From NCBI RefSeq assembly GCF_044324785.1, contig NZ_CP172127.1: DNA of 64,000 bases; one strand, 5' to 3'. Each line of letters starts with the position of its first letter. The stretch's first letter is position 1. Position numbers and translations under genes: made by a program. Of this stretch, positions 5,387-51,318 are shown piece after piece. The notes below the pieces were generated by a model. That model was not told the DNA's origin, did no database searches, and was given only the letters and a program-made list of their open reading frames with translations. Origin of the DNA: Escherichia coli. Lineage in GTDB: Bacteria > Pseudomonadota > Gammaproteobacteria > Enterobacterales > Enterobacteriaceae.

Positions 5387-6652
5387 ATGGCTTCTACTTT
5401 TACCAGCGACACATTGCCTGCCGATCACAAAGCAGCTATCCGTCAGATGAAGCACGCGCTGCGGGCGCAGCTTGGCGACGTCCAGCAGATCTTTAATCAG
5501 CTAAGCGATGACATTGCCACGCGAGTGGCTGAAATCAACGCACTCAAAGCACAGGGCGATGCCGTCTGGCCGGTGCTGTCTTATGCCGATATCAAAGCAG
5601 GTCATGTTACTGCAGAGCAGCGCGAACAAATTAAACGTCGCGGTTGTGCGGTGATAAAAGGCCATTTCCCCCGCGAACAAGCGCTAGGCTGGGATCAGTC
5701 GATGCTGGACTATCTGGACCGCAACCGCTTTGACGAGGTCTACAAAGGCCCCGGCGATAATTTCTTCGGGACACTCAGCGCTTCACGTCCCGAGATTTAC
5801 CCCATCTACTGGTCGCAGGCGCAAATGCAGGCCCGCCAGAGTGAAGAAATGGCGAATGTGCAGTCGTTTCTCAATCGTCTGTGGACATTTGAAAGTGATG
5901 GAAAGCAATGGTTTAACCCGGATGTGAGCGTCATCTACCCTGACCGTATCCGCCGCCGTCCGCCCGGAACGACCTCCAAAGGTCTTGGAGCGCATACCGA
6001 CTCCGGGGCGCTGGAACGCTGGCTGCTTCCAGCGTATCAGCACGTTTTCGCCAACGTCTTTAATGGCAATCTGGCGAAATACGATCCCTGGCATGCGGCA
6101 CATCGTACGGAAGTTGAAGAGTACACGGTGGACAACACCACCAAATGTTCCGTGTTTCGGACATTCCAGGGCTGGACAGCGCTCTCTGATATGCTGCCTG
6201 GTCAGGGGTTGCTGCACGTCGTGCCCATTCCTGAAGCCATGGCGTACGTACTGTTACGTCCGCTGCTTGATGATGTGCCGGAGGATGAACTGTGCGGCGT
6301 AGCGCCCGGAAGAGTGTTGCCGGTATCAGAGCAATGGCATCCACTGTTAATTGAGGCGTTAACCAGCATTCCAAAACTCGAGGCCGGAGACTCCGTCTGG
6401 TGGCACTGCGACGTCATCCATTCCGTTGCCCCCGTTGAAAATCAACAGGGTTGGGGCAACGTGATGTACATTCCTGCGGCACCGATGTGCGAGAAAAATC
6501 TTGCCTACGCGCACAAGGTGAAGGCCGCACTGGAAAAAGGCGCATCGCCGGGCGACTTCCCGCGCGAGGACTATGAAACAAACTGGGAAGGACGCTTTAC
6601 GCTTGCCGACCTCAACATTCACGGTAAGCGAGCGTTGGGAATCGACAGCTGA
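5387..6652 (+). CDS. ybiU: DUF1479-family protein YbiU
   Basis: ORF 5381..6652; ATG at 5387 has GAGG upstream; 421 aa recognised as YbiU. Confidence 0.85.
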   Translation: MASTFTSDTLPADHKAAIRQMKHALRAQLGDVQQIFNQLSDDIATRVAEINALKAQGDAVWPVLSYADIKAGHVTAEQREQIKRRGCAVIKGHFPREQALGWDQSMLDYLDRNRFDEVYKGPGDNFFGTLSASRPEIYPIYWSQAQMQARQSEEMANVQSFLNRLWTFESDGKQWFNPDVSVIYPDRIRRRPPGTTSKGLGAHTDSGALERWLLPAYQHVFANVFNGNLAKYDPWHAAHRTEVEEYTVDNTTKCSVFRTFQGWTALSDMLPGQGLLHVVPIPEAMAYVLLRPLLDDVPEDELCGVAPGRVLPVSEQWHPLLIEALTSIPKLEAGDSVWWHCDVIHSVAPVENQQGWGNVMYIPAAPMCEKNLAYAHKVKAALEKGASPGDFPREDYETNWEGRFTLADLNIHGKRALGIDS

Positions 6653-7722
6653 GTGTCGTACAGCCCTTCCCGTTCCACGGCGGTGTTCCCTTTTCCTGGG
6701 CGAACCCGCCGCACTGACTCCCGCACCGCCAATCGTCCGTGCAGCAGCAGCGAGCCCACCGGAGCATCCGGGCGAATCAGCCGCTGTTGCAACATTTGCA
6801 CCGCTTCATTGCCTAGCTCATCGCGTGGCACATGCACAGCCGTCAGGGGAACATCCTCGATTGCCGCAAGGTTAAAGCCGTCGATACTCATCACCGAGAC
6901 ATCCTGTGGTACGCGCAGACCACGACGATGTAGCGCATTTACCGTTCCCGCCGCCATAAAATCCCCGCCGACCAGAAACGCCGTCGGCAACGTCTTGCCA
7001 TTGGCGGCATCCAGCCACGCTCCGACCTTTTCTTCCGCTTCTTTAGCGCTAAAACTGCTGATATTCAGCAAATGACGGTCATGGTGAAAGGCCAGATTAT
7101 GCTGACGCCATGATTCTTTAATCCCTGCAAACCGCTGCTCCATAGTGTAGCGGCGCAGGCACATCACATTCATCACCTCCCGGTGACCCATTTCAAACAG
7201 ATAGCGGGCGGCGAACGCGCCAATTAACCGATGGTCCGGCGCAATCGCCGGGAGGCGCATTCGTTCATCACGGCAGTTGATCAGCACACAAGGCTTAGCG
7301 AGATCGGCGGCCAGATCATGGATGTGCGGATCGTCAATCCCCAGCAGGATCGCCGCCTGCGTATCTGCTTCATTCATCCGCGAGAGAAATAGCGCGGGAT
7401 CGCTGTCAAACTCCTCCAGCGCGCAGTAACGCAGCCGCACTTCATGCGGCGATAACGCTTTGCTGATGCTCTGGATCACACGGTAATAAAAGATATCAGA
7501 TCGTTGGTCAAAAGCGCGTTGCGGCGCGAAAATAATCAGGTTGTTCAGCAACATACGACCTGCTGCCATGCCATCCATCACGCCCAACTCACGCGCGCAG
7601 GCCAGCACCTGTTCGCGAGCGCGTGCACTGGTATTCGCTTTGCCAGCCAGCACCCGCGAAACCGTACTCGGCGATAGCCCGGTACGTGCGGCGATATCGG
7701 CGATTTTCAGCTTCTTGTCCAT
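6619..7722 (-). CDS. LacI-family transcriptional regulator (accessory locus)
   Basis: ORF 6619..7800 (-); likely start MDKKLKIADIAARTGLSPSTVSRVL (HTH at N-terminus) at 7722; periplasmic-binding-protein-like core; 3-prime end overlaps ybiU by 34 bp. Confidence 0.8.
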   Translation of the reverse strand: MDKKLKIADIAARTGLSPSTVSRVLAGKANTSARAREQVLACARELGVMDGMAAGRMLLNNLIIFAPQRAFDQRSDIFYYRVIQSISKALSPHEVRLRYCALEEFDSDPALFLSRMNEADTQAAILLGIDDPHIHDLAADLAKPCVLINCRDERMRLPAIAPDHRLIGAFAARYLFEMGHREVMNVMCLRRYTMEQRFAGIKESWRQHNLAFHHDRHLLNISSFSAKEAEEKVGAWLDAANGKTLPTAFLVGGDFMAAGTVNALHRRGLRVPQDVSVMSIDGFNLAAIEDVPLTAVHVPRDELGNEAVQMLQQRLIRPDAPVGSLLLHGRLAVRESVRRVRPGKGNTAVEREGLYDTQLSIPNARLP

Positions 7723-8016
7723 TTTGTGATCTGCCTCTAATTCGGAAATGACAGAATTTTCATGAGCAAAAAAGCCCATTCTGTCTGGCATTAAATCCAT
7801 TTCAGTAATGTATATCAGTCACTCATGGAAAAACGTGCACAAAACCCGCTTTCTTTCGCTTTTAGGGTCTCTTACTGTGAATTGGTAGAACAACTTCCAT
7901 ACAAAAATAATGGAAAAACGAACAACAAAGACTTTATTTATCAAAAAGTTAAAAGTGGTGTGACAACTCCATTCTGACGTTGCCGCACAAACCCTATACC
8001 ATTCTGTGGAGTGCAT

Positions 8017-9318
8017 ATGAGTCAGGGTATCAATAACGATATGACTGCCAGTAAACCGCGCCATATCGTCAAAAATCTGCGTTGGTGGATACTGGTCCTT
8101 TTTTTGCTCGGTGTTACTGTCAACTACATCACGCGTAACTCGCTGGGTATTCTCGCCCCCGAACTGAAAAGCAGCCTGGGGATTACCACCGAACAATATT
8201 CCTGGATTGTAGGTGCTTTCCAGCTCGCCTATACCCTATTCCAACCGTTGTGCGGATGGCTGATTGACGTCATTGGCCTCAAACTGGGCTTTATGATCTG
8301 CGCGGGACTGTGGGCACTGGCCTGTCTGATGCATGCGGGGGCGGGAAACTGGGTACATCTGGCGCTGTTGCGCTTCTTTATGGGCGGTGCGGAAGCCGCA
8401 GCAACCCCAGCAAACGCCAAAACCATCGGTGAATGGTTTCCAAAATCAGAACGCCCGATCGCCGCAGGCTGGGCAGGCGTCGGTTTTTCCATCGGTGCCA
8501 TGCTGGCCCCACCGATTATCTATTTTGCCCACGCTTCATTCGGCTGGCAGGGTGCATTTATGTTCACTGGCATCCTGGCGATGCTGTGGGTCGTGCTGTG
8601 GTGGGCGTTCTATCACAGCCCGGATAAGCATCCTAACCTCAGCAAAGCCGAGCTGGACTTTATTCGCCAGGATAACGAAGCGCCCCCGGTCAAGTTACCC
8701 TTTCTGACCGCACTGAAAACCGTGGGCAAAAATAAACGCTTTTACGGTATCGCTATCCCGGCCTTTATGGCAGAACCGGCGTGGGCGGTGATGAGTTTCT
8801 GGGTTCCGCTATACCTGTCCAAAACCTATGGCATGGACCTGAAGCAGATCGCATTATTCGCCTGGTTGCCGTTCCTCGCCGCTGATCTTGGCAGTATTGC
8901 CAGCGGCTATCTGACCAAACTTTACACCCGCCTGTTTGGGCTGAGTCGTGTGAACTCCGTTGTCGCATCATCGGTCAGTGGCGCATTCCTGATGGTTTCG
9001 CTGGCGGTGATGGCCTTTACCAATAACCCGTATATCGCCATCGTCCTTATCTCCATCGGCGGCTTCGGTCACCAGATCATCTCCTGCATGCTAAGCGCAC
9101 TGGTGGTGGAATCCTTCGACAAAGGTCAGATGGCCACTGTTAACGGCATGCGCGGTTCTGCCGCGTGGATCGCAAGTTTCCTGTTCTCCCTGATAATCGG
9201 GGTTACCGCAGACAAAATCGGCTTTAACCCCCTGTTTATCGCCATGGGCTTCTTTGACCTGATTGGCGCTTTCTTCCTGGTCACCTTTATTGCTGAACGT
9301 CGCGCAAAACGCGCCTGA
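8017..9318 (+). CDS. MFS transporter, anion:cation symporter family, ExuT (hexuronate transporter)-like
   Basis: ORF 8011..9318; ATG at 8017 has GGAG 5 nt upstream; N-terminal region aligns by eye with ExuT (LRWW..TRN...QYSWI...GEWFPKSER...IGAMLAPPI). Confidence 0.8.
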   Translation: MSQGINNDMTASKPRHIVKNLRWWILVLFLLGVTVNYITRNSLGILAPELKSSLGITTEQYSWIVGAFQLAYTLFQPLCGWLIDVIGLKLGFMICAGLWALACLMHAGAGNWVHLALLRFFMGGAEAAATPANAKTIGEWFPKSERPIAAGWAGVGFSIGAMLAPPIIYFAHASFGWQGAFMFTGILAMLWVVLWWAFYHSPDKHPNLSKAELDFIRQDNEAPPVKLPFLTALKTVGKNKRFYGIAIPAFMAEPAWAVMSFWVPLYLSKTYGMDLKQIALFAWLPFLAADLGSIASGYLTKLYTRLFGLSRVNSVVASSVSGAFLMVSLAVMAFTNNPYIAIVLISIGGFGHQIISCMLSALVVESFDKGQMATVNGMRGSAAWIASFLFSLIIGVTADKIGFNPLFIAMGFFDLIGAFFLVTFIAERRAKRA

Positions 9319-9332
9319 GAGTGGATGTAAAC

Positions 9333-11696
9333 ATGAAAACGCTGAAAAACTGGACCCTGCACAAACAGTCTGCCCACCACGTTGAACTGCTGGTCGATGG
9401 CCAGCATATCCTGTGCCTGTACGTGCTGGAAGAAAATCTGTTCCGCGTGCTGTTAAAACGCAAAGGCGAGCTGGCGCTGGATCGCACCTGGAGCATTGCT
9501 CCGGCGCAGGATGTGCCATGGGAAGGGCGCAGCCGCGAAGATCTCAGCGGCTTTAGCCTGCCCGCGTGGACATTGATCCAGCACGACGACACCGTGGTTA
9601 TCGCCACCGAGTCACTGCGTGTCACCGTTCACCAGCCGCTGTGGCTGGAGTGGCACTATCGTAACAACGAAGGCGAATGGCTGCCGTTGGTGAATGACCG
9701 CCCGACCAGCGCTTATCTGCTGAATGCCCACGGCGATGGCGTGGCACACTATCAGAGCCGTCGTAAAGATGAACGCTTTTATGGCCTCGGAGATAAAGCC
9801 GGCGACCTGCAACGCAACGGTAAACGTTACGAGATGCGTAACCTCGACGCGATGGGCTACAACGCCGTTAGTACTGACCCGCTGTACAAACACATTCCAT
9901 TCACCATCACCCGCCGCGATGACATTAGCTTCGGCCTGTTTTATGACAACCTCAGCAGCTGCTGGCTGGATCTGGGCAACGAGATCGACAACTACCACAC
10001 CGCCTATCGCCGCTGGCAGGCGGAAGCGGGTGATATCGACTACTACCTGTTTACCGGCGAACGCGTACTTGATATCACCAAAGCCTTCGTACGCCTGACC
10101 GGAAAAACCCTGTTCGGACCGAAATGGAGCCTGGGCTACAGCGGTTCAACTATGCACTACACCGATGCGCCGGACGCACAAAATCAGTTGATGAACTTTA
10201 TCCGCCTGTGTGAAGAACATGCAATTCCCTGCGATTCGTTCCAGCTCTCTTCCGGTTATACCTCAATTAACGGCAAACGCTATGTGTTCAACTGGAACTA
10301 CGACAAAGTGCCGCAGCCGAAAGTGATGAGCCAGGCATTTCACAATGCTGGTTTGCACCTGGCCGCCAATATCAAGCCGTGCCTGTTGCAGGATCACCCA
10401 CGCTATAACGAAGTGGCAGAAAGAGGACTGTTCATCCGTGATTCAGAAACAGATGAACCAGAACGTTCCAGCTTCTGGGATGACGAAGGTTCTAACCTCG
10501 ACTTTACTAATCCGCAGACCATCCAGTGGTGGCAGGAAGGCGTGACCACACAGCTTCTGGAGATGGGTATCGACTCCACCTGGAACGACAACAACGAATT
10601 CGAAGTATGGGACGGTGAAGCACGCTGTCACGGCTTTGGTCAGACGATCGCGATCAAACATATTCGCCCAGTGATGCCACTGCTGATGATGCGAGCCTCG
10701 ATGGAAGCCCAGCAGCGTTTCGCTCCGGAAAAACGTCCGTACTTGATCTCCCGCTCCGGCTGCGCGGGAATGCAGCGCTACGTGCAGACCTGGAGTGGCG
10801 ATAACCGCACTAGCTGGGACACTCTGCGCTACAACACCCGCATGGGTCTGGGGATGAGCCTCTCCGGGTTGTATAACCTCGGTCACGACGTCGGCGGTTT
10901 CTCCGGTGATAAACCGGACCCGGAACTGTTTGTACGCTGGGTACAAAACGGCGTGATGCATCCGCGCTTTACGATTCACTCATGGAACGATGACCATACC
11001 GTAAACGAACCGTGGATGTATCCGGGCGTCACTCCGGCGATCCGCAGCGCTATTGAGTTGCGCTATCGCCTGCTGCCCTACTTTTATACCCTGATGTGGC
11101 AGGCATACGCCGATGATGAACCAATGCTACGTCCGACTTTCCTTGACCACGAGCACGACGTTCAGACTTTTGAAGAGTGTGATGACTTCCTGCTTGGTCG
11201 CGATATTTTGGTTGCCAGCGTCGTAGAGCAAGGCGAGCGCCAGCGCCGTGTATGGCTGCCAGATAACGAAACTGGCTGGTACGATTTCTACAACGGCGAA
11301 TGGTTCAGTGGCGGTCAGTGGATCACCCTCGACGCACCGCTGGAGAAACTGCCGCTGATGGTGCGTGCCGGGGCTGGTCTACCGCTCAGCAAACGCATCA
11401 CCTATGTGAGCGCAGAACAAGACGATACCCGCGAACTGAAACTGTTCCCGCTGAAAGGTGTGGGCACAACGTCCGGCCTGCTGTTTGAAGACGATGGCGA
11501 AAGCTGGGGCTACCAAACTGGTAATGCGCTTTGGGTGGAATGGGAAATGGTTTGCGATGGGGCGACCATCAACCTGAAAGTCAACGCGCGCGGGGATTAT
11601 CGTCCTGCATGGAGTGCACTGAAAGTGTCATTACCATTGGAAGAAAAACGCACGCTGCTGGTCAATGGTGTTGAAGGGAGTGAATGGATGCGTTAA
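9333..11696 (+). CDS. glycoside hydrolase family 31 (alpha-glycosidase), specificity unknown
   Basis: ORF 9321..11696 (GTG at 9321 or ATG at 9333); GH31 motifs GIDSTWNDNNE (nucleophile region) and RSGCAGMQRYVQTWSGDNRTSW (acid/base region). Confidence 0.8.
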   Translation: MKTLKNWTLHKQSAHHVELLVDGQHILCLYVLEENLFRVLLKRKGELALDRTWSIAPAQDVPWEGRSREDLSGFSLPAWTLIQHDDTVVIATESLRVTVHQPLWLEWHYRNNEGEWLPLVNDRPTSAYLLNAHGDGVAHYQSRRKDERFYGLGDKAGDLQRNGKRYEMRNLDAMGYNAVSTDPLYKHIPFTITRRDDISFGLFYDNLSSCWLDLGNEIDNYHTAYRRWQAEAGDIDYYLFTGERVLDITKAFVRLTGKTLFGPKWSLGYSGSTMHYTDAPDAQNQLMNFIRLCEEHAIPCDSFQLSSGYTSINGKRYVFNWNYDKVPQPKVMSQAFHNAGLHLAANIKPCLLQDHPRYNEVAERGLFIRDSETDEPERSSFWDDEGSNLDFTNPQTIQWWQEGVTTQLLEMGIDSTWNDNNEFEVWDGEARCHGFGQTIAIKHIRPVMPLLMMRASMEAQQRFAPEKRPYLISRSGCAGMQRYVQTWSGDNRTSWDTLRYNTRMGLGMSLSGLYNLGHDVGGFSGDKPDPELFVRWVQNGVMHPRFTIHSWNDDHTVNEPWMYPGVTPAIRSAIELRYRLLPYFYTLMWQAYADDEPMLRPTFLDHEHDVQTFEECDDFLLGRDILVASVVEQGERQRRVWLPDNETGWYDFYNGEWFSGGQWITLDAPLEKLPLMVRAGAGLPLSKRITYVSAEQDDTRELKLFPLKGVGTTSGLLFEDDGESWGYQTGNALWVEWEMVCDGATINLKVNARGDYRPAWSALKVSLPLEEKRTLLVNGVEGSEWMR

Positions 11697-11875
11697 ATCA
11701 TTACCGGGGCCGGGAGGCGACTGCACCTTACCCGGTCCAGCCATCGAATCCTTTACCTCAGTATTTCACGCTGCAGGAAGGCAGCAAACCTGTAAACCCC
11801 GGGAGCTTAAATAAGTAAGTGACCGGGGTGAACAGGTGAAGCCAATGCATCTGCCGCATGAAAGACGGCGGGGAA

Positions 11876-13471
11876 TTAACCGTCGATCCCTTTACTACGC
11901 AGGTAATCTTCGTAATTACCGCTAAAGTCAATAACGCGTTCCGGGGTGATTTCCAGAATGCGGGTCGCCAGGGAGCTTACGAACTCACGGTCGTGTGAAA
12001 CAAAGATCAGCGTGCCCTGATACAGTTCCAGCGCCATGTTCAGCGACTCGATGGATTCCATATCCAGGTGGTTGGTCGGTTCGTCCATGATCAGAATGTT
12101 CGGCTTCTGCATCATTAACTTACCAAACAGCATCCGCCCTTTTTCCCCACCGGAAAGCACTTTCGCTGGTTTTTTGATGTCGTCCTGGCTGAACAGCAAA
12201 CGACCGAGAATGCTGCGTACCGCCTGCTCGTCATCGCCTTCCTGCTTCCACTGGCTCATCCATTCGAACACGGTCAGATCATTTTCAAACTCATATTCGT
12301 GGTCCTGAGCATAGTAACCAATGCGCGCGTTTTCAGACCATTTTACGGTGCCGCTGTCCGGTTGCAGATCGCCCACCAGCGTTTTCAGCAGCGTTGATTT
12401 ACCGACGCCGTTGGTACCCAGTACCGCAAGTTTTTCACCGACCTCCAGCAGCAGGTTGAGATTTTTAAACAGTGGACCGTTATCAAACCCTTTGGTCAGA
12501 CCTTCCACTTCCAGCGCGTTACGGAACAGTTTCTTATCCTGTTCAAAACGGATGAACGGGTTCTGACGGCTGGAGGCTTTCACCTCTTCCAGTTTGATTT
12601 TATCAATCTGGCGCGCGCGCGAAGTTGCCTGGCGAGATTTCGAGGCGTTGGCGCTAAAGCGGCTAACGAAAGATTGCAGCTCAGCAATCTGCGCTTTCTT
12701 CTTGGCGTTATCAGCCAGCAGACGTTCACGCGCCTGGGTCGCCGCCGTCATGTACTCATCGTAGTTGCCCGGATAAACGCGCAGCTCGCCGTAATCCAGA
12801 TCCGCCATATGGGTACAAACCATGTTAAGGAAGTGACGGTCGTGCGAGATGATGATCATGGTGCTGTCACGCTCGTTCAGCACCTGTTCCAGCCAACGAA
12901 TGGTGTCGATGTCGAGGTTGTTGGTCGGTTCGTCGAGCAGGAGAATGTCTGGATCAGCAAAAAGCGCCTGTGCCAGCAGCACACGCAGCTTCCAGCCAGG
13001 AGCAACTTCACTCATCGGGCCGTAGTGCTGTTCCACTGGAATTCCCACGCCAAGCAACAATTCACCGGCGCGAGCTTCCGCAGAGTAACCGTCCATTTCG
13101 CCGTATTTCACTTCCAGATCGGCCACTTTATAGCCGTCTTCTTCACTCATTTCCGGCAAAGCATAGATGCGGTCACGCTCCTGCTTCACTTCCCACAACT
13201 CTTTATGCCCCATGATCACCGTATCCAGCACAGTGAACTCTTCAAAGGCAAACTGATCCTGACGCAGCTTACCAATGCGCTCGTTGGGATCGAGGGAAAC
13301 GTTACCCAACGTCGGCTCTAAGTCGCCGCCGAGGATCTTCATAAAGGTGGATTTACCACTACCGTTCGCGCCAATCAGGCCGTAACGGTTGCCGCCGCCA
13401 AATTTGACGGAAATGTTTTCAAACAACGGCTTACTGCCGAACTGCATGGTGACGTTACTGGAAACTAACAC
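11876..13471 (-). CDS. ybiT: ABC-F family ATPase (tandem ABC domains) YbiT
   Basis: 531 aa; two Walker A motifs ([18 protein letters not shown]) and ABC signature motifs. Confidence 0.9.
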
Positions 13472-27757: not shown

Positions 27758-30040
27758 ATGGAAAACAATCGCAATTTCCCTGCCAGACAATTTCATTCGC
27801 TCACGTTCTTTGCCGGTCTTTGTATTGGCATCACGCCTGTGGCTCAGGCACTCGCCGCCGAAGGGCAAGCAAACGCGGATGACACGCTGGTTGTCGAAGC
27901 ATCAACGCCTTCGCTTTATGCGCCACAACAATCTGCTGATCCGAAATTCTCGCGTCCGGTAGCGGATACTACCCGCACGATGACGGTGATTTCTGAACAA
28001 GTGATTAAAGATCAGGGCGCAACCAACCTTACCGACGCGCTCAAAAACGTCCCCGGCGTGGGTGCGTTTTTTGCGGGTGAGAACGGTAACTCCACCACTG
28101 GCGACGCCATTTATATGCGTGGTGCCGATACCTCTAACAGTATTTATATTGATGGCATTCGCGATATCGGCAGCGTCTCGCGCGACACCTTCAATACCGA
28201 GCAGGTCGAAGTGATTAAAGGGCCGTCCGGCACCGACTACGGGCGCAGCGCACCGACGGGCTCGATCAATATGATCAGCAAGCAGCCGCGCAATGACTCA
28301 GGCATTGACGCCTCCGCGAGTATTGGCAGCGCCTGGTTCCGCCGCGGCACGCTGGACGTCAATCAGGTCATTGGTGATACCACTGCGGTGCGCCTGAATG
28401 TGATGGGTGAAAAAACGCACGATGCCGGACGCGACAAAGTCAAAAATGAGCGTTACGGCGTCGCCCCTTCTGTCGCTTTTGGCCTTGGCACAGCGAATCG
28501 TTTGTATCTTAATTATCTACATGTCACCCAGCACAACACGCCAGACGGCGGCATTCCGACCATCGGTTTGCCGGGCTATTCTGCCCCATCTGCGGGAGCG
28601 GCGGCCCTGAATCATTCCGGAAAAGTAGATACGCATAACTTTTATGGCACGGATTCCGATTACGACGATTCGACCACCGATACCGCTACCATGCGTTTTG
28701 AGCACGATATCAACGATAACACCACCATTCGCAATACTACCCGTTGGTCGCGCGTGAAGCAGGATTACCTGATGACGGCGATTATGGGCGGGGCGTCGAA
28801 TATTACCCAGCCCACCAGCGATGTGAATAGCTGGACCTGGTCACGCACGGCGAATACTAAAGATGTGAGTAATAAAATTCTCACCAACCAGACCAACCTG
28901 ACCTCGACGTTCTATACCGGTTCTATCGGTCATGATGTCAGTACCGGCGTGGAATTTACCCGTGAAACGCAGACTAACTACGGCGTTAATCCGGTGACGT
29001 TACCTGCGGTAAATATTTATCATCCTGACAGCAGCATTCATCCCGGCGGCCTGACGCGCAACGGCGCAAACGCCAATGGTCAGACGGATACCTTCGCAAT
29101 TTACGCTTTCGATACGCTGCAAATCACCCGTGATTTTGAGCTGAACGGCGGGATCCGTCTGGATAATTATCATACTGAATATGACAGTGCCACCGCCTGC
29201 GGCGGCAGCGGACGCGGTGCCATCACCTGCCCTGCTGGCGTGGCAAAAGGTTCTCCGGTCACCACCGTCGATACCGCCAAGTCGGGCAATCTGGTGAACT
29301 GGAAAGCCGGGGCGCTGTATCACCTGACGGAAAACGGCAATGTCTATATTAACTATGCTGTTTCCCAGCAGCCTCCGGGCGGCAACAACTTCGCCCTTGC
29401 GCAGTCTGGCAGCGGTAACAGTGCCAACCGCACCGATTTTAAACCGCAAAAAGCCAACACCAGCGAGATTGGCACCAAATGGCAGGTTCTGGATAAACGC
29501 CTGTTGCTCACCGCCGCGCTGTTCCGTACTGATATCGAAAATGAAGTTGAGCAAAATGATGACGGAACTTACTCGCAATACGGTAAGAAACGCGTCGAAG
29601 GCTATGAGATATCCGTGGCCGGGAATATCACTCCCGCGTGGCAGGTGATTGGCGGCTATACCCAGCAAAAAGCAACCATCAAAAACGGCAAAGATGTTGC
29701 CCAGGATGGTTCCTCATCGCTGCCGTATACCCCGGAGCACGCCTTTACCTTATGGAGCCAGTATCAGGCAACCGATGATATTTCCGTTGGTGCGGGCGCA
29801 CGCTATATCGGCAGTATGCATAAAGGTTCTGACGGCGCGGTGGGAACGCCAGCGTTTACCGAAGGTTATTGGGTCGCCGACGCTAAACTGGGGTATCGGG
29901 TTAATCGCAATCTCGACTTCCAGCTAAACGTCTACAACCTGTTTGATACCGATTACGTCGCCTCAATCAACAAGAGCGGCTACCGTTATCACCCGGGCGA
30001 GCCAAGAACCTTCCTGCTCACGGCCAATATGCATTTCTGA
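27758..30040 (+). CDS. fiu: TonB-dependent catecholate siderophore receptor Fiu
   Basis: 760 aa; signal peptide; TonB box region; C-terminal aromatic residue. Confidence 0.9.
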
Positions 30041-30081
30041 TTCAGATGTGGGGCGCAGGCCCCACTTTTTGGAGAACTTGT

Positions 30082-30759
30082 ATGATGTACCACATTCCCG
30101 GCGTGCTATCGCCAAAGGACGTCGCCCGTTTTCGCGAACAACTGGAACAAGCCGAATGGGTGGATGGACGCGTCACCACTGGCGCACAAGGTGCGCAAGT
30201 TAAGAACAATCAACAGGTAGACACCCGCAGCACGTTATACGCCGCCCTGCAAAATGAGGTGCTGAACGCGGTTAACCAACATGCTTTGTTCTTTGCCGCG
30301 GCCTTACCGCGTACCCTTTCCACGCCGCTGTTTAATCGCTATCAGAACAATGAAACCTATGGTTTTCATGTGGATGGCGCAGTACGCAGTCACCCACAAA
30401 ACGGCTGGATGCGCACTGACCTTTCTGCCACACTGTTTTTAAGCGATCCACAAAGCTACGACGGCGGCGAACTGGTCGTTAATGACACCTTCGGACAACA
30501 TCGGGTAAAACTCCCGGCAGGCGATCTGGTGTTGTATCCCTCCAGCAGCTTGCATTGCGTGACACCCGTAACCCGCGGCGTACGAGTGGCATCATTTATG
30601 TGGATCCAGTCGATGATCCGTGATGATAAAAAGCGCGCCATGCTGTTTGAACTGGACAACAATATTCAGTCGCTGAAAAGCCGCTACGGCGAAAGTGAAG
30701 AGATCCTGTCGCTGCTCAATCTTTATCATAATCTGCTGCGGGAATGGTCGGAGATCTGA
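30082..30759 (+). CDS. ybiX: Fe(II)/2-oxoglutarate-dependent oxygenase YbiX (PKHD-type hydroxylase)
   Basis: ORF 30046..30759; ATG at 30082 has GGAG upstream; 225 aa. Confidence 0.85.
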
Positions 30760-30832
30760 CGCTTGAACTGCCCGAGTTCGTCCCTATATTAGCTACACTT
30801 AACTGTACAAGTATTGATATGGGGAGGACGAT

Positions 30833-31099
30833 ATGGCATCCGGTTGGGCTAACGATGACGCCGTCAACGAACAGATCAACAGTACAATTGAAGATGCGAT
30901 TGCCCGCGCTCGGGGTGAAATTCCGCGTGGTGAAAGCCTGTATGAATGTGAAGAGTGCGGCGCACCTATCCCACAGGCCCGTCGGGAAGCCATTCCTGGC
31001 GTGCGCTTATGCATTCATTGTCAGCAGGAGAAAGATTTACAAAAACCAGCTTATACAGGATATAATCGCAGAGGTTCGAAAGACAGCCAGTTACGTTAA
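30833..31099 (+). CDS. ybiI: DksA/TraR-family C4-type zinc finger protein YbiI
   Basis: 88 aa with CxxC...CxxC (CEECG...CIHC). Confidence 0.85.
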   Translation: MASGWANDDAVNEQINSTIEDAIARARGEIPRGESLYECEECGAPIPQARREAIPGVRLCIHCQQEKDLQKPAYTGYNRRGSKDSQLR

Positions 31100-31363
31100 C
31101 TACAACTGGCGGGATGTATAGCGAGTATAATTTGTATTTTGCGTGGCATTCCGTGCCTTTAACGCTGTCGTGACTGCCACGCTGCATAAAACAAGTCCAT
31201 AAGTTCAACAAATAAATGGATTATCAGTATGTTAGATATCAATCAATTTATTTGAACAAGGCGGTCAATTCTCTTCGATTTTATCTCTCGAAAAAAAACG
31301 TGATACTCATCACATCGACGAAACAACGTCACTTATACAAAAATCACCTGCGAGAGATTAATT

Positions 31364-31624
31364 ATGAAAACTATCAATACTGTTGTTGCTGCTATGGCTC
31401 TTTCAACTCTGTCATTTGGCGTGTTTGCCGCGGAACCGGTAACGGCATCCCAGGCACAGAACATGAATAAAATCGGCGTGGTTTCTGCCGATGGCGCATC
31501 CACCCTCGATGCCCTGGAAGCGAAACTGGCTGAGAAAGCTGCGGCAGCTGGGGCGAGTGGATACAGCATCACTTCTGCCACCAACAACAATAAATTAAGC
31601 GGTACTGCGGTAATTTATAAGTAA
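31364..31624 (+). CDS. ybiJ: DUF1471 periplasmic protein (paralogue of the gene at 27233)
   Basis: 86 aa with signal peptide; symbol by gene order. Confidence 0.7.
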   Translation: MKTINTVVAAMALSTLSFGVFAAEPVTASQAQNMNKIGVVSADGASTLDALEAKLAEKAAAAGASGYSITSATNNNKLSGTAVIYK

Positions 31625-31735
31625 TTCGTAAGCCGGATCAGTCGTTTACGCTACGTCCAGCACAAGTATTTCCCTGTCTGTTTGCCGACAGACGCATATG
31701 CTCTAACCCTCATTGATCCTATATTACCCTTGTTT

Positions 31736-31764
31736 GCCCGTCCGTTACTGGACGGGCTTTTTTG
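31736..31764 (+). terminator. rho-independent terminator downstream of ybiJ
   Basis: gcccgtccgttactggacgggc followed by ttttttg. Confidence 0.7.
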
Positions 31765-32473
31765 TGCACAGAAAACCCCCAGCTAGGCTGGGGGTTCCGG
31801 AAAGCTTTCAGCTTTGAGCCAGTTATTAAAACCCCTTTTGATTTGTTAAAACACCTTGCGGTCTGGCAACTGCAAGTGTCAAACAAGAAATCAAAAGGGG
31901 GTCCCAATGGGGGACGAAAAGAGCTTAGCGCACACCCGCTGGAACTGTAAATATCACATAGTTTTTGCGCCGAAATACCGAAGACTGGCGTTTTACGGAG
32001 AGAAGCGTAGGGCGATAGGCAGTATTTTGAGAAAGCTGTGTGAGTGGAAAAGCGTACGGATTCTGGAAGCAGAGTGCTGCGCAGATCATATCCATATGCT
32101 TGTGGAAATCCCACCCAAAATGAGCGTATCCGGCTTTATGGGATATCTGAAAGGGAAAAGCAGTCTGATGCTTTACGAGCAGTTTGGGGATTTGAAATTC
32201 AAATACAGAAACAGGGAGTTCTGGTGCCGAGGGTACTATGTCGATACGGTGGGTAAGAACACGGCGAAGATACAGGACTACATAAAGCACCAGCTTGAAG
32301 AGGATAAAATGGGGGAGCAGTTATCGATTCCATATCCGGGCAGCCCGTTTACGGGCCGTAAGTAACGAAGTTGAATGCAAATGTCAGATCGTATGCGCCT
32401 GTTAGGGCGCGGCTGGTAACAGAGCCTTACAGGCGCATTTGAAAAACCTCCGGCTATGCCGGAGGATATTTAT
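31758..32473 (+). mobile_element. IS200 insertion sequence (ends approximate)
   Basis: Y1 transposase gene flanked by similar subterminal hairpins (cccccagc-tag-gctggggg at 31776-31794 and cctccggc-tat-gccggagg at 32447-32465); RBS-sequestering stem-loop at 31829-31904; about 0.7 kb. Confidence 0.75.
31907..32365 (+). CDS. tnpA: IS200 transposase TnpA (Y1/HUH)
   Basis: ORF 31856..32365; start MGDEKSLAHTRWNC at 31907 (152 aa); HUH motif HIHMLVEI and catalytic Tyr region. Confidence 0.9.
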   Translation: MGDEKSLAHTRWNCKYHIVFAPKYRRLAFYGEKRRAIGSILRKLCEWKSVRILEAECCADHIHMLVEIPPKMSVSGFMGYLKGKSSLMLYEQFGDLKFKYRNREFWCRGYYVDTVGKNTAKIQDYIKHQLEEDKMGEQLSIPYPGSPFTGRK

Positions 32474-33694
<1,221 letters not shown>

Positions 33695-33699
33695 GAAAA

Positions 33700-34662
<963 letters not shown>

Positions 34663-34689
34663 TTACGACTCCTTACCTGACTCACATCA

Positions 34690-36840
34690 TTAACGCCGCC
34701 GACGGCGTGGGGATTTCGTTTTTTCTTTCTTTTTAACTATACCTTCAGGGACTTCCGGTTGCTCTATCGGAAATACCGGTAATGCATCCAGTAGCCGCTT
34801 GCCATAATTTTTGGTCAGCAAGCGTTTGTCGTAAATCACCACTTCGCCCCAGCAACCGTGGCTTCGAATCAGTCGCCCAACCTGCTGAATCAGGTTAAAC
34901 GAGGCGCTCGGCAGGCTTTGCACCTCAAACGGATAGCGGTTGAGGCTTTTCAGCCATTCTCCTTCGGTGATCACCACCGGGCTGTCGATGGGCGGAAAAG
35001 CGATTTTGTGGATATGCACCTGGCTGAGCAGATCGCCTTTCAAATCAAGCCCTTCGGCAAATGACTGCAAGCCCACCAGCACGCTACGCTCACCGTTGGC
35101 AACGCGTTTGCGGTGCAGTTCAACTAAACGGTAACGCGGCTGATCGCCCTGCACCAGCAACATCAGGCGTAAATCCGTCACATAGTCGAGAAACCGCTGC
35201 ATCGCCCGTCCGCTGGCAAACAGTACCAACATACCGAGATGTTTTTTGCTCTCCACCTGTTTACGGAAAAAGGCCGCCATTTCGGCAATGTGCTGCTCTT
35301 CGTTGTCGATGGAAGGCTCAACGCGCATCCGGGGAATAACAATTTTGCCCTGTTCGCAGTGGTTAAAGGGCGAATCCAGCGCCACAAAGCGGTCGCCCGC
35401 TTTCTCTTTCAGCCCGCTCATCTCCTGCAAACGCGAAAAACTGTTCAGCGAACGCAAGGTTGCGGAAGTGACAATAATGTGCGGAATACTGCGCCACAGC
35501 AGCCTTTCCAGCTGATCGCTGACACGAATACCCACGCAGTGAAACCAGAGATGCAGCTGCCCTTCGCGCTCTTCCCGCGTCGCCCATTTGGTCACCGGCG
35601 CACCGGAAGATTGCGCCAGAGACGCCAGCCGCCAGAGTTTGCTTTGCGCCTCGAACATCCCCAGCGCGCGGTTCATCTGCAAAATCAACCGATGCAGACG
35701 TACAATGTCATGGCTGCCGGTTTTCTCACTTAAATCGTTAAGAAATAACTCCGCCAGACCACGCAGCATCTCGGTGAGTTTTGCCAGCCGTTGGCAGATC
35801 TCCAGCACTTCATCAGGCAGTTCGCCCATCGCAAAACGGTGCTCTGCCTCCTGCCCGGCAGGCATGTAGAGGTTGAGAATGTTGTTTAACGAGGCGATAA
35901 GCTCATACAACTCTTCACAATGGGCATTCAAACGCTCGGGGATCGCCAGCGGAGGGATGGTCTTCGGGCGAAACTGCTCCATACAGGTAGCGACCAGTTT
36001 CGTGAACAAGTCCAGCTGTAGCCGATACCAGGGCGCGGTGATTTCGGCGCTCATCTCCAGCGCATCCCGTGCCACATCCGGCAGGTGATGACCTTCGTCC
36101 AGCACCAGCAGTAAATTTTTCGGGTCAGGCAATACGGCTTCGCTTTCCATCGCCGCCATCACCAGCGCATGGTTTGCCACTACAACTTCCGCTTCCTGAA
36201 TTTCCCGACGAGCGACAAAAAACGGGCATTCGCGATAGTAATAACAGTTGCGGTTGAGGCAGCTGGCTTTGTCGGTACTCAACCGACGCCAGAGATCATC
36301 ATCAATGGCGATATCCGTATGATCGCGCAGACCATCCCATTTATAAGTGTCGAGATCGCCCTTCAACTTTGCACAACGCTTTTGCTCTTCCTGATTGTTC
36401 GGCGTCAGCTCGTCGTCAAGAAACGCCAGCAGATCCTGTTGCGTGGGTTCAGTACTGGCAAGCGCTGTCAGATTACGCGGGCAAACGTAGCGCCCACGCC
36501 CAAAAGCGGCAGTGAATTTAAGATCGGGAATGATCTTTTTCAGCAATGGTAAATCTTTGCTGTAGATCTGATCCTGCAACGCCACGTTGGCGGTACTCAC
36601 CACCAACGTTTTTTGCTCTTCGCGGGCAATGGCGATGCCGGGAATCAAATAGGAGAGCGTTTTCCCAACGCCGGTGGGTGCTTCAATCGCCAGATGCCGC
36701 CCTTCTTCTCCGGCCAGCGTTTTGGCGACGTCCGCAATCATCTGCCGCTGCGGCGCACGGGGAATAAAGTCGGGGATCTGTTCCTGAAGCGCCTTATACC
36801 AGGCGGCAATTTGCGCTTTAAGCGCGGCGGTTAATGCCAT
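34690..36840 (-). CDS. dinG: ATP-dependent DNA helicase DinG
   Basis: 716 aa; Walker A APTGVGKT; DEGH box; Fe-S cluster cysteines. Confidence 0.9.
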   Translation of the reverse strand: MALTAALKAQIAAWYKALQEQIPDFIPRAPQRQMIADVAKTLAGEEGRHLAIEAPTGVGKTLSYLIPGIAIAREEQKTLVVSTANVALQDQIYSKDLPLLKKIIPDLKFTAAFGRGRYVCPRNLTALASTEPTQQDLLAFLDDELTPNNQEEQKRCAKLKGDLDTYKWDGLRDHTDIAIDDDLWRRLSTDKASCLNRNCYYYRECPFFVARREIQEAEVVVANHALVMAAMESEAVLPDPKNLLLVLDEGHHLPDVARDALEMSAEITAPWYRLQLDLFTKLVATCMEQFRPKTIPPLAIPERLNAHCEELYELIASLNNILNLYMPAGQEAEHRFAMGELPDEVLEICQRLAKLTEMLRGLAELFLNDLSEKTGSHDIVRLHRLILQMNRALGMFEAQSKLWRLASLAQSSGAPVTKWATREEREGQLHLWFHCVGIRVSDQLERLLWRSIPHIIVTSATLRSLNSFSRLQEMSGLKEKAGDRFVALDSPFNHCEQGKIVIPRMRVEPSIDNEEQHIAEMAAFFRKQVESKKHLGMLVLFASGRAMQRFLDYVTDLRLMLLVQGDQPRYRLVELHRKRVANGERSVLVGLQSFAEGLDLKGDLLSQVHIHKIAFPPIDSPVVITEGEWLKSLNRYPFEVQSLPSASFNLIQQVGRLIRSHGCWGEVVIYDKRLLTKNYGKRLLDALPVFPIEQPEVPEGIVKKKEKTKSPRRRRR

Positions 36841-36854
36841 GAGAAAACCTGAAA

Positions 36855-36874
36855 TACTGTATAAACAGCCAATA
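36855..36874. promoter_or_regulatory. LexA (SOS) box of dinG, asymmetric type
   Basis: tactgtataaacagccaata immediately upstream of the dinG start; CTG...CAG half-sites with non-canonical spacing. Confidence 0.6.
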
Positions 36875-37010
36875 TTGTGGCATTTTTCGGTTTTCAGGGG
36901 TAATGGTTTTTCTGTTTCTGGAAAGCGGCTCGCAATAACGTTTTCTGGAAGTGAGATTTTCCCGCAGCAGAAGAAACATCATTGCGTAGTAAAAGACAAT
37001 GCACGCAGGC

Positions 37011-37292
37011 TTATTGCGCTGGTGGCCATTGCAGGGCGGTATGCAAAACACGCAGTACCGAGAGCGTATCGCCCTCCACTTGGTAGATCAGCACATAATG
37101 CGGTCTGACAACGGCTTCATGAGTGCCAGCGACTCGTCCGGCCCGATACATCTGCGGGCGTTCACAAACCTGTTCCGCAATGGCTTCAAATTGATTATCA
37201 AGGGCAATTGCCGCTTGCGGATTATCTTTACTGATGTATACCATGATTTGCTCCCTGTCAGACAGGGACATTGGCTTCCATTCCAGACGCAT
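37011..37292 (-). CDS. RelE/ParE-family toxin (ParE-like), 93 aa
   Basis: Pattern typical of ParE/RelE-fold toxins (YISKDNPQAA ... YVLIYQVEGDTLSVLRVLHTALQWP); start ATG overlaps the upstream stop (TAATG). Confidence 0.7.
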   Translation of the reverse strand: MRLEWKPMSLSDREQIMVYISKDNPQAAIALDNQFEAIAEQVCERPQMYRAGRVAGTHEAVVRPHYVLIYQVEGDTLSVLRVLHTALQWPPAQ

Positions 37293-37732
37293 TAATCCCC
37301 CTTCAACAAGGCTTTTTTACGGGCAGCAAATAGACTTTTGGCCTCTTCATGAGAGAGCGCTGGGCGTGGATCGTCAATGGCGGCCTGCACCTGCTCTCGA
37401 AACCAGGCATCATACGCGGCAGCTTCATGAGCTCGTTTTAATGCCTCTGCCCTGTCAGGTCGGGTCGTTTTCTTCTGACCATCCGGGTCGTAATTAGAGG
37501 CGTCGACTTCAAACCGGGCAATACCAACATCTTTCAGGTAGTTGACAACCGTTTCCAGCCGTTTGAACAGGCGGATTTGCCGACTGCGTTGTGCTGCAAG
37601 AGGCCGTTCAGTGTGGCCGTATTTCACGGTCAACGACCAGCCTCCCTGGGTGCCAATAACGTGTGCTGCATCCACTACGCCAGACTCAACCAGTTTATGT
37701 AAGGTTGAGTGATCGATCGTTTCTGGTGCCAT
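37292..37732 (-). CDS. putative antitoxin partner of the ParE-like toxin, atypically long (146 aa), function unknown
   Basis: Coupled to the toxin gene by a 1-nt overlap; AGAGG about 10 nt upstream of the ATG; no confident family assignment by eye. Confidence 0.55.
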   Translation of the reverse strand: MAPETIDHSTLHKLVESGVVDAAHVIGTQGGWSLTVKYGHTERPLAAQRSRQIRLFKRLETVVNYLKDVGIARFEVDASNYDPDGQKKTTRPDRAEALKRAHEAAAYDAWFREQVQAAIDDPRPALSHEEAKSLFAARKKALLKGD

Positions 37733-37768
37733 AATGCGCTAACCTCTTTGTATACAGCATGCAATTTA

Positions 37769-37812
37769 TAATTAAAGATAGCGCAATTAATAATTAAAGA
37801 TAGCGCAATTAA
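37769..37812. repeat. perfect tandem direct repeat, 2 x 22 bp, in the promoter region of the toxin-antitoxin-like operon
   Basis: taattaaagatagcgcaattaa at 37769-37790 and again at 37791-37812, 37-80 bp upstream of the start at 37732; candidate operator. Confidence 0.6.
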
Positions 37813-37909
37813 TAATAAATTGCATTTTTTGATCGTAAATTGTCCAGGGTGAAATTGCGGTAGAAAGAGACTTGTTGCGAAGATGCCGGGCATCGCCCGG
37901 CATAAAAAG

Positions 37910-48636: not shown

Positions 48637-49086
48637 CTAATGAAAAAAACGCGTATGCCTTTGCCAGACAAGCGTTATCGCTATTGCTGCAAGAATCCCA
48701 AAGAAGCCGATAAAATAGTAATAGAGTGTTAATGCACCTGTAACAGCGCAACGAACCGGACTCCACAATTCTTCGCTATGGCATTTTCCTGCCAGTTCAA
48801 GGAGCTTATTTCGTCCATGCGAGATAATGCCTGACCATAAAACAATCATTAAGCAACTTATTACCCAAATGGGCCGTTCACTCATTAATGCGGCATTCAC
48901 GATGATCACCAGGGCCAACCCTGTCAACGTCATCATAATGATAAAACGGTGAGAACCAGGATCAACATTAAATAATAAACCGGCCAGCATACTGATTAAA
49001 AACATCGCGCCCGCAGTGCTGAACACAAGGATAATGGCAGATACAGGAAGTGACTGCTCCCCGTCCTGTCGGGCGAGGCTTCCCAC
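48637..49086 (-). pseudogene. ybhM: ybhM (BAX-inhibitor/YccA family), C-terminal fragment; upper boundary approximate (about 49030)
   Basis: Minus-strand ORF whose TM-rich sequence continues the N-terminal fragment at 50769..51113; separated from it by the tnpA/tnpB element. Confidence 0.65.
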
Positions 49087-49089
49087 TTC

Positions 49090-50259
49090 TTAAGCCGCAA
49101 CCGTCTGTGTGACGGATTTATGCTGGCCTCCATGGGCAGAAACGACGAGTCCCGCCGCTTGTAATTCCAGTATGCCCTTGCGTTTGATGTTGAGCGCCGC
49201 GTTGATATCGCGGTCATGTTCAACTCCACACTCTGGACACTGCCAGATGCGCTTACGTAATGGCATCTCCGACATTTTGTGACCGCAGCAGTGGCAGGTT
49301 TTCGAACTGGCGAACCATTGATCCAGTTTCACCAGATGCACACCTTTCTCTGCTGCTTTATATTCCAGTTTTGTGATGAATCCAGACCATCCAGCATCGC
49401 CTATCGCACGAGCCAGATGGTGATTTTTCATCATATTTGCCGTTTTCAATTTCTCGACAATTACCGCTTGGTTTTCGTCAACAATTGCGCGAGATAACTT
49501 GTGCTGGAAATCGGCACGGGCACTGGCTACCCGTTCGTGAACGGCTGCAAGTTGTATTCTGGCTTTGCGCCTGTTTGCGCTCCCTTTTTTCTTACGGGAC
49601 AGTGCTTTCTGCTTCCGGCGCAGGTTGCGACTTGCATTGATTAGGTGGCGGGGACTGGCAATTTTATTGCCGTCCGATTTGATGACAAAATGCGCCAGCC
49701 CCATATCCAGCCCTGTCACATTTGATATCAGTGCGGGCTTTGCCGGCGCTTCCATCCCGTCGTCACAGAGTAACGACGCGTAGTATTTCCCGGTTGCGCT
49801 GCGGCTCAACGTGATACTTTTCAGCATTCCCGTAATTTCACGATGTAAACGCGCTTCAATCGGCAAGATTTTCGGTATTTTTATCGCACCATCAAGGACT
49901 TTTATGCCAACACAATGATAGCTCGATTGTCTGCCGTGTTTACTTTTAAAGGTAGGTTTACCTGCTTTCAGTTTCGGATTGAAAAAGTTAGAAAAAGCCA
50001 CGTCGAGGTTAATTACCGCCTGCTGCAACGCAATAGAATCATATTCTTTAAGCCATCCATACCGGCGGGATTTCTTCGCCACTGCAAGCAGTGGTTTGAG
50101 GTCTTTACGCGGGTTTAAATTTACGCGGTGCCGCTGGTAAGAATGTTTCTTGATATGCAGAGCTTTGTTGTACGCAAAACGCACTGCACCGAACTGGGCG
50201 TTGATAAATTCAGCCTGTTCTGGTGTCGGGTAGATGCGTACTTTTGTTGCTCTTAACAT
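49090..50259 (-). CDS. tnpB: TnpB (IS605-family OrfB; RuvC-like RNA-guided endonuclease)
   Basis: 389 aa; RuvC-I GLDMG, zinc finger CHCCG...CPECG, RuvC-III HDRDINAALN; apparently intact. Confidence 0.85.
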   Translation of the reverse strand: MLRATKVRIYPTPEQAEFINAQFGAVRFAYNKALHIKKHSYQRHRVNLNPRKDLKPLLAVAKKSRRYGWLKEYDSIALQQAVINLDVAFSNFFNPKLKAGKPTFKSKHGRQSSYHCVGIKVLDGAIKIPKILPIEARLHREITGMLKSITLSRSATGKYYASLLCDDGMEAPAKPALISNVTGLDMGLAHFVIKSDGNKIASPRHLINASRNLRRKQKALSRKKKGSANRRKARIQLAAVHERVASARADFQHKLSRAIVDENQAVIVEKLKTANMMKNHHLARAIGDAGWSGFITKLEYKAAEKGVHLVKLDQWFASSKTCHCCGHKMSEMPLRKRIWQCPECGVEHDRDINAALNIKRKGILELQAAGLVVSAHGGQHKSVTQTVAA

Positions 50260-50315
50260 AATCAGCGCTCATTGATATAATGCTTTTATTTTAACACTTT
50301 AGGTGAATATATCAA

Positions 50316-50741
50316 TTGAGTAATCATGATGATTTACTGGCGGGATTTCTCCGCAAACGACACAGTGTCAGTAAGCTGGTTGTGCACCTTATTTTTACGA
50401 CAAAGTATCGACGCAAACTATTCGACAGTCAGATGATCGCTCAGTTGCGTGAGGCTTTTGGCTCCGCTGCGGCAAAGCTTGAATGCGAAATTATTGAGAT
50501 GGACGGGGAGCCAGACCATGTACACCTGCTGGTGGCCTACCCGCCAAAACTGGCGGTCAGTGTGATGGTCAATAATTTAAAATCGGTATCATCACGTTTG
50601 CTACGCCAGCAGAACGCGCATTTACGTATGCAGAGTAAAACGGGGCTTTTGTGGTCGAGATCGTACTTTGTCTGTAGCACCGGAGGGGCAACGATTGAAA
50701 CGCTCAGAGCCTACGTTCAGAGTCAGTCAACACCTGATTGA
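50316..50741 (+). CDS. tnpA: IS200/IS605-family transposase TnpA (Y1/HUH)
   Basis: 141 aa; HUH motif HVHLLV; C-terminal Tyr in RAYVQSQ. Confidence 0.85.
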   Translation: MSNHDDLLAGFLRKRHSVSKLVVHLIFTTKYRRKLFDSQMIAQLREAFGSAAAKLECEIIEMDGEPDHVHLLVAYPPKLAVSVMVNNLKSVSSRLLRQQNAHLRMQSKTGLLWSRSYFVCSTGGATIETLRAYVQSQSTPD

Positions 50742-50768
50742 TCTTTAAAGCCCTGCGGGCTTTTCGCC

Positions 50769-51113
50769 TTATATCCCCGCCCGCATTGGGCGAGGGTTTA
50801 CGGCGTTTTTCGCTAAACTTGCAACGACAATCGCCACCAAAGAGAGTAAAAACAGATATATTACGCCTGCGATGGCGGCATTTATCTTGTTGATATCCTT
50901 ACTTAAGCCATACATACAAAGTAATAATAACCCTATGGCGACATACATTGGTGGTGAATCATATTTGGTTGCCGTAATTTCGAGATACTTAGCTCCCCAG
51001 GCCAGTCCTGCGGTTGCCACCAAACCTAAAGCGGTAATGAGCCATATACCGTTTAATATCCTGGCCTCGTGCTGAAAATCTAATTTATTGCTGTTTTGCG
51101 AGTATGATTCCAT
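50769..51113 (-). pseudogene. ybhM: ybhM N-terminal fragment; the reading frame runs into the IS end and stops
   Basis: ORF 50769..51140 (-); start MESYSQNSNKLDF at 51113; last codons (NPRPMRAGI) overlie the IS subterminal hairpins. Confidence 0.65.
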
Positions 51114-51318
51114 TCTTTTAGTTGTCCTTAGAAAAAACATTAATATTTACCATCAATAAATTTAAAGCCACGCATACAAAATACTTTTTTATTTATGGAT
51201 ACGGAAAACGCTTCCGCTCGCTCATAAGGCATATTTTATACCTGGTACTTGTTAAGTGTCGTTTTTTCGTAAGAAAAAATCCCGACACATGGCCGGGATA
51301 TTGATGGTGAAAAAAGAA

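Follow-up and report, generated by a model that had tools for sequence, protein, structure and literature searches.

An intact IS200 copy in the ybiJ terminator T-run of an Escherichia coli genome, and the association of IS200 with terminators

The window, by which we mean the whole stretch of 64,000 nucleotides analysed here, contains an IS200 element (IS200/IS605 family) inserted in the T-run of the ybiJ intrinsic terminator. We consider it very likely that this is an intact and apparently transposition-competent IS200 that entered the T-run by a single-strand route. The element is a standard copy of an already known transposon, and all of the IS200 features tested were present. Its position is not accidental and follows a clear rule, as IS200 is found just behind terminators, and the ybiJ terminator is a typical IS200 target. 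The insertion has little importance for this locus itself; the wider pattern is more useful. The neighbourhood is that of E. coli fiu-ybiX-ybiI-ybiJ / hcxB(ybiC)-ybiB-dinG, in which IS200 has the same orientation as ybiJ. The features of the region, in window positions, are:

31364-31624, + strand: ybiJ
31638-31697, - strand: ybiE, small ORF of 19 aa, annotated in strain N3 and in empty alleles
31736-31763, + strand: ybiJ intrinsic terminator, hairpin GCCCGTCCGTTACTGGACGGGC (31736-31757) and the remaining T6 (31758-31763), from the terminator scan
31764-32474, + strand: IS200 element, 711 bp, GTGCACAGAAAA...GGATATTTATT, from alignment with the empty allele
31774-31796, + strand: left-end hairpin AACCCCCAGC-TAG-GCTGGGGGTT, 10-bp stem, presumed TnpA-binding subterminal hairpin, from folding
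about 31826-31915, - strand: expected art200 antisense RNA region, placed by homology only from the description of Ellis 2015 (PMC4513863), coordinates approximate
31832-31900, + strand: 5'UTR stem-loop, found in the MFE and centroid structures alike
31907-32365, + strand: tnpA, 152-aa HUH/Y1 single-strand DNA transposase, from ORF, profile search and motifs
32447-32465, both strands: right-end hairpin CCTCCGGC-TAT-GCCGGAGG, from folding and the terminator scan
32474-33559, - strand: hcxB (ybiC), hydroxycarboxylate dehydrogenase, 361 aa

The boundaries were fixed by alignment with the nearest empty allele (strain 18KM2445, L003). An IS-free allele had been proposed for comparison in the initial annotation, and this comparison revealed an insertion of 711 bp, within the range of the group (about 707-711 bp). 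The empty allele has the same ybiJ terminator hairpin followed by T7 (terminator scan). It reads GGACGGGC-TTTTTTT-AGCTGGCTAA, with AGCTGG after the T7, whereas the occupied site reads GGACGGGC-TTTTTT-(GTGCACAGAAAA...GGATATTTATT)-T-AGCTGGCTAA. As the empty T7 has become T6 + IS200 + T, the insertion occurred without target duplication. The T-run at the junction leaves some ambiguity, and the two ends of IS200 may lie up to 2 nt further left, shifting together (31762-32472). The initial annotation had delimited the element at 31758-32473; an insertion is indeed found there, but its ends are corrected to 31764-32474, and the T6 at 31758-31763 belongs to the ybiJ terminator, which is the insertion target and is host DNA outside IS200. 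The hairpin of this terminator had a DNA folding energy of -10.7 kcal/mol (z -6.8). The proposed placement between the ybiJ terminator hairpin and the ybiC stop was borne out by the empty-site alignment, as was the adjacency of the right end to that stop: the hcxB TAA (32476-32474) straddles the IS/host junction, is intact, and its complement overlaps the ybiJ terminator T-run. With both flanks joined as the query, the site was uninterrupted in 5,414 of the 5,420 matching E. coli genomes.

The ybiJ-hcxB intergenic region is also polymorphic independently of IS200. Many E. coli, for example GDSC2227PM (L004:554-800), have an extra palindromic (REP/BIME-like) segment of ~90 bp just past the ybiJ stop. 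About half of the sampled genomes carry the ~90-bp palindromic segment at this site together with a terminator T8, not T7.

IS200 lacks terminal inverted repeats. Its termini are GTGCACAG... on the left and ...ATATTTATT on the right, and subterminal hairpins lie at both ends. The two hairpins described initially are present: cccccagc-tag-gctggggg at 31776-31794, with a stem that extends to 10 bp (31774-31796), and cctccggc-tat-gccggagg at 32447-32465; both fold as predicted. No shuffled sequence folded equally well in either case (0 shuffles; z -3.7 for the left end and -5.2 for the right). The left-end hairpin occurs once in the 64-kb window and corresponds to positions 1-23 of the Rfam STnc490 model. 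The right-end hairpin is terminator-like on both strands, with the tail ATATTTATTT on the plus strand (at the tnpA end) and the tail TTTTTCAAAT on the minus strand (after hcxB). Two further Rfam matches, Ysr202 (31.5 bits vs a gathering score of 315) and anti-hemB (19.6 vs 49.5), were discarded as sub-threshold and reflecting a terminator hairpin only; that to Ysr202 arises from the minus-strand form of the right-end hairpin.

As both hairpins look like terminators, they might be thought to belong to the host, as native terminators or REP elements on either side of a gene acquired horizontally. The empty allele refutes this, since it has neither hairpin and lacks the whole 711 bp, and at other loci and in other genera the element is accompanied by both hairpins. 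We therefore give native hairpins practically no chance against hairpins that belong to IS200.

The sole gene of the element is tnpA. There is no tnpB, and the other ORFs that overlap the element are unsupported, lying over tnpA in another frame or antisense to it. The ORF of a 152-aa Y1 transposase, reported initially, is present at 31907-32365 (+). Its product matches NCBIfam transpos_IS200 (NF033573; E 2e-42, 144 bits vs a cut-off of 55) and is identical to WP_000502112.1. The HUH motif is H61-I-H63 and the catalytic Tyr is Y125; Y125F is the catalytically dead mutant in the work of Ellis et al. 2015 (PMC4513863). Relatives in the PDB include two Sulfolobus Y1 transposases, 2ec2 (E 2e-23) and 2f4f, as well as the TnpA proteins of IS608 (2a6m, E 3e-19) and ISDra2 (2xm3, E 5e-16).

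The 5' part of the element is highly structured. Its left 162 nt had an MFE of -65.2 kcal/mol (z -4.6 vs shuffles), and a long stem-loop (31832-31900) pairs CCCCUUUUGAUUU with the region that holds the Shine-Dalgarno (SD) sequence AAGGGGGU (31895-31902), so that the 3' arm contains most of the SD. The burial of the ribosome binding site in a stem-loop, given initially as 31829-31904, was thus confirmed by folding, with a closely similar span. Rfam STnc490 (RF01405) matched 31774-31897 at full length (146.4 bits vs a gathering score of 56), and by this match the art200 region is conserved. The match is on the plus strand, sense to tnpA, and includes the left-end hairpin, whereas STnc490/art200 is antisense to the tnpA 5'UTR according to Ellis et al. 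2015 (PMC4513863). It therefore marks the region and not necessarily the strand of the sRNA. A consensus scan for a sigma-70-like promoter of tnpA or art200 found none, in agreement with the IS200 literature, in which the promoter is undefined.

Salmonella enterica IS200 is the closest known system (Lam & Roth 1983; Beuzon et al. 1999; Ellis et al. 2015, PMC4513863). It likewise has a single 152-aa tnpA with Y125 and the art200/STnc490 region, and lacks inverted repeats and target duplication. Its terminator hairpin (nt ~12-34) and SD-sequestering stem-loop (nt ~69-138), mapped at nt 12-34 and nt 69-138 by Ellis 2015 (PMC4513863), have counterparts here at nt 11-33 and nt 69-137 of the element's own numbering. 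The two differ in length (707 bp quoted vs 711 bp here), and ours, likened to it by layout, is of an E. coli lineage. In Salmonella IS200 the left-end hairpin acts as a bidirectional terminator against incoming transcription (Ellis 2015, PMC4513863). By analogy, the left-end hairpin here would block read-through from ybiJ, which has a terminator of its own, while the 5'UTR stem-loop would hide the SD and the expected antisense art200 would further keep tnpA expression low.

The IS200 identity put forward in the initial annotation is upheld by the NCBIfam and Rfam matches and by the layout of Ellis et al. 2015 (PMC4513863). A failure to match IS200, or the loss of the end hairpins on alignment, had been named as grounds for rejecting it; a match was found and both hairpins are there. 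The identification rests on Rfam, NCBIfam and the near-identical copies found in 1,951 E. coli genomes. An isoform named in ISfinder has >=95% nucleotide (98% protein) identity to the ISfinder reference.

IS200 is widespread in E. coli. A near full-length copy was found in 1,951 of 5,426 complete genomes (~36%), at up to 35 places per genome; the search gave 15,764 places in 5,420 genomes, a count that includes matches to the flanks. The 711 bp of the window showed 0 differences from copies in other strains at a prophage lom/tail-fibre junction (L007) and at the rpoS 3' end (L010), and 1 difference from three further copies. These near-identical copies at different loci show that IS200 is repeated and mobile in E. 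coli genomes.

At the ybiJ site itself, IS200 was present in just two of the 5,426 complete E. coli genomes besides the window strain. One, strain N3, has the identical element and junction (100% identity over 31700-32520). The other, strain 98210, has at the ybiJ T-run a copy annotated by NCBI as IS200C. It shares the 711-bp length, the ends, the hairpins and the insertion point with the window copy, but belongs to a separate lineage, with 27 substitutions (96.2% identity), all within 31913-32430. Because the 98210 element differs at 27 positions, and the window copy is identical to copies elsewhere, sequence comparison points to two IS200 lineages having struck the ybiJ T-run independently. 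A single ancient insertion common to window/N3 and 98210 was rejected, as the elements are of different IS200 lineages.

These data also bear on whether the copy is still a live transposon. IS200 has been described as essentially dormant, and an sRNA derived from its 5'UTR regulates host genes in Salmonella, so the copy could be a fixed, immobile relic kept for its RNAs (5'tnpA, art200). Its rarity at the ybiJ site, its identity to copies at other loci, and the intact ORF, HUH/Y residues and both ends all argue against this, and we regard such a relic as very improbable. The copy is far better described as a mobile IS200 that is apparently still competent.

Where IS200 lands was examined in other copies. 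Six other E. coli copies were all directly past the hairpin and T-run that end a gene (lom, rraB, dsbA, rpoS and rluA among them as the genes concerned), in the orientation of that gene. A scan for the exact 23-nt left-end hairpin, with one genome per species, gave at least 120 loci (L012-L131). Among the matches listed, these were in Yersinia pestis, Vibrio, Brenneria, Dickeya, Edwardsiella, Oxalobacter and Mailhella/Desulfovibrio, and also in Bacillota, Peptococcaceae, Saccharibacteria and Elusimicrobiaceae MAGs. Such a distribution points to IS200 having spread widely by horizontal transfer, with a conserved terminator-like target.

The upstream flanks share a distinct pattern. Among the matches listed, 98 of 126 unique upstream flanks (78%) had a perfect-stem GC-rich hairpin with a T-rich tail that ended 3-10 nt before the IS. 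The same rule was satisfied at 53 of 5,000 random positions (1.1%), and at 8.2% of all T5+ runs. The upstream 45 nt had an MFE of -10 kcal/mol or lower at 98% of the IS200 sites among the matches listed, compared to 33% of random positions. T was found at upstream positions -6/-5/-4/-2/-1 in 103/121/106/124/113 of the 126 sites among the matches listed, and this conserved TTTNTT constitutes a short specific target 5' of IS200. The distance from stem to IS was tightly distributed, at 3-6 nt among the matches listed. The same hairpin/terminator enrichment upstream of IS200/IS605 is described in a preprint (10.1101/2025.07.22.666184), which in the literature searched was the only explicit statement that IS200 targets terminators.

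Tandem copies in Y. pestis NCTC5923 (L077, L078, L080, L094, L124) provide a further clue. In these the second copy starts immediately past the right-end hairpin and ATATTTATT(T) of the first. Since the second copy sits directly behind it, the right end of the element itself appears to resemble a target. The arrangement is as if the right end had served as an insertion site, or as if the copies were dimers.

We explain the ybiJ site by a target preference of the IS200 group for a GC-rich hairpin followed by TTTNTT. What underlies this preference is more evenly balanced. TnpA of the IS200 group may recognise the shape of a terminator (a GC-rich hairpin, with TTTNTT 3-6 nt later) as a structured single-strand target, a proposal to which we give about an even chance. 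Such a target would mimic the element's own right end, with its hairpin and ATATTTATT. If true, the rule would span Enterobacteria to Bacillota, Desulfovibrionaceae and Saccharibacteria, and would account for two IS200 lineages having independently reached one ybiJ T-run. It goes beyond the 4-5 nt targets of IS608 and ISDra2, and the idea is only partly new.

Another explanation is that the hairpin goes unrecognised, that a short T-rich target suffices, and that only harmless insertions, for example those past terminators, survive. The strong conservation of T at -6 to -1 is consistent with this, as is the need of IS608 and ISDra2 for just a 4-5 nt target, and selection would act against insertions in genes or promoters. 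However, when ORF-free T5+ runs were scored by the same strict rule, the hairpin was present at 12% of them, far below the frequency seen at the IS sites listed. The excess of strongly folding flanks over random positions, the tight spacing between stem and IS, and the Y. pestis copies inserted directly behind the right-end hairpin of another copy likewise speak against selection being the sole cause. We think that explanation rather unlikely by itself, although survival of harmless insertions could contribute part of the terminator association.

Other elements show parts of this pattern. IS1541 of Yersinia pestis has an identical 23-nt left-end hairpin, the same right end (CCTCCGGCTATGCCGGAGGATATTTATT), and the same placement behind a hairpin and T-run. 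It differs in its first 10 nt (GTGCCCAGAA vs GTGCACAGAA), in a far higher copy number and in having tandem copies. Odaert et al. are said to have proposed, in 1998, terminator-like stem-loops as hot spots for IS1541. IS608 (H. pylori) and ISDra2 (D. radiodurans) have a homologous HUH/Y1 TnpA, subterminal hairpins, and insertion 3' of a short target with no duplication; in contrast to IS200 they carry tnpB, and their targets, TTAC and TTGAT, have no reported hairpin requirement. In group IIC introns (bacterial class C), homing is directed at the 3' flank of the hairpin of an intrinsic terminator, a position that keeps harm to the host minimal. This is an analogy only, as their mechanism (retrohoming by a ribozyme and a reverse transcriptase) is unrelated.

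By analogy with the IS200/IS605 family, the element would be excised and inserted by its transposase through single-stranded DNA. Homology with IS608 and ISDra2 suggests that TnpA would bind the subterminal hairpins of the top strand and cleave 5' of the left end and 3' of the right end to give a single-strand circle, which would integrate 3' of a short target in single-stranded DNA. At ybiJ this 'peel and paste' route would place the element in the terminator T-run with no target duplication. In IS608, cleavage and target sites are read by pairing with nucleotides just 5' of each hairpin. Here, A-runs lie just 5' of both hairpins, CAGAAAA/CCCCCAGC (CCCCC) on the left and TGAAAAA/CCTCCGGC (CCTCC) on the right, and both the T-rich target (TTTNTT) and the T-rich right end (TTATT) are complementary to them. 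They could act as guide sequences that pair with the T-rich cleavage and target sites, as in IS608. The placement of IS200 behind terminators provides a model, open to testing, in which a Y1 transposase recognises its target by structure and sequence together.

The orientation of IS200 relative to replication was also analysed. Among the matches listed, the IS top strand was on the G-rich strand at 85 of 100 loci with >=2 kb of flank (p 5e-13), which agrees with the known preference of the IS200/IS605 family for the lagging-strand template. The plus strand of the window has a GC skew of -0.024, so that here the top strand of IS200 is on the C-rich strand, the minority orientation. This minority orientation suggests that the terminator is the primary determinant of position, a comparison that is confounded by gene-orientation bias.

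Effects on the neighbouring genes are probably small. ybiJ keeps its hairpin and T6, and hcxB keeps its TAA. In the empty allele there is a terminator-like site on the ybiJ strand only, and the sequence after the hairpin on the hcxB strand is AAACAAGG. As the shared hairpin has a T-run only on its ybiJ side, the empty allele does not provide hcxB with a canonical hairpin and U-tract. In the window, transcription of hcxB meets CCTCCGGCATAGCCGGAGG and TTTTT 8 nt past the stop (terminator scan, minus strand), from which we infer that IS200 gives hcxB a canonical-looking terminator (the right-end hairpin and U5). The initial annotation had raised the possibility that a native ybiC terminator was displaced or replaced. 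An IS hairpin with TTTTT does follow the stop, but the empty allele has no clear native terminator, and the IS would add a terminator-like signal where it had been thought to replace one.

The insertion also separates ybiE from hcxB by the 711 bp of IS200 with its two bidirectional hairpins. It might slightly alter the 3' ends of the hcxB and ybiJ transcripts, or ybiE expression. Overall it is strain-specific and probably near-neutral, and its presence in 2 of 5,426 complete genomes makes it usable as a lineage marker. More generally, a position almost invariably behind terminators predicts where IS200 can land, and explains its harmlessness and persistence. The ybiE product ends in ...SVND in the window and in ...SVNA in the empty allele L003, and NCBI calls the window/N3 variant a 'hypothetical protein' instead of YbiE.

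We considered whether the window might be strain N3 itself, and rejected this. The two are collinear only over 28051-36935 (99.28% identity), and several islands differ. fiu is uninterrupted in the window (~28051-28063) and split by IS4 in N3, while the IS200 insertion is common to both. Between ybiU and ybiT the window has a 5.2-kb island (6640-11882), where N3 has a copy of IS621. This island encodes a LacI-family regulator (6619-7800, -), an MFS-like transporter (8011-9318, +) and a GH31 alpha-glucosidase/xylosidase-like protein (9321-11696, +). The dinG-rhlE gap of the window (36936-37909) contains a RelE/StbE-family toxin of 93 aa (37011-37292, -) and a RelB-like antitoxin of 146 aa (37292-37732, -). 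In N3 this place is taken by a 4.3-kb segment that carries espX2 together with a hypothetical gene.

A second, different element of the IS200/IS605 family is present at 49050-50812, as a 1.76-kb insertion that is absent from N3. It has a tnpB of 389 aa (49090-50259, -; NCBIfam guided_TnpB, 341 bits) and a divergent tnpA of 141 aa (50316-50741, +; transpos_IS200, 141 bits). This element splits ybhM into ORFs at 48637-49086 and 50769-51140.
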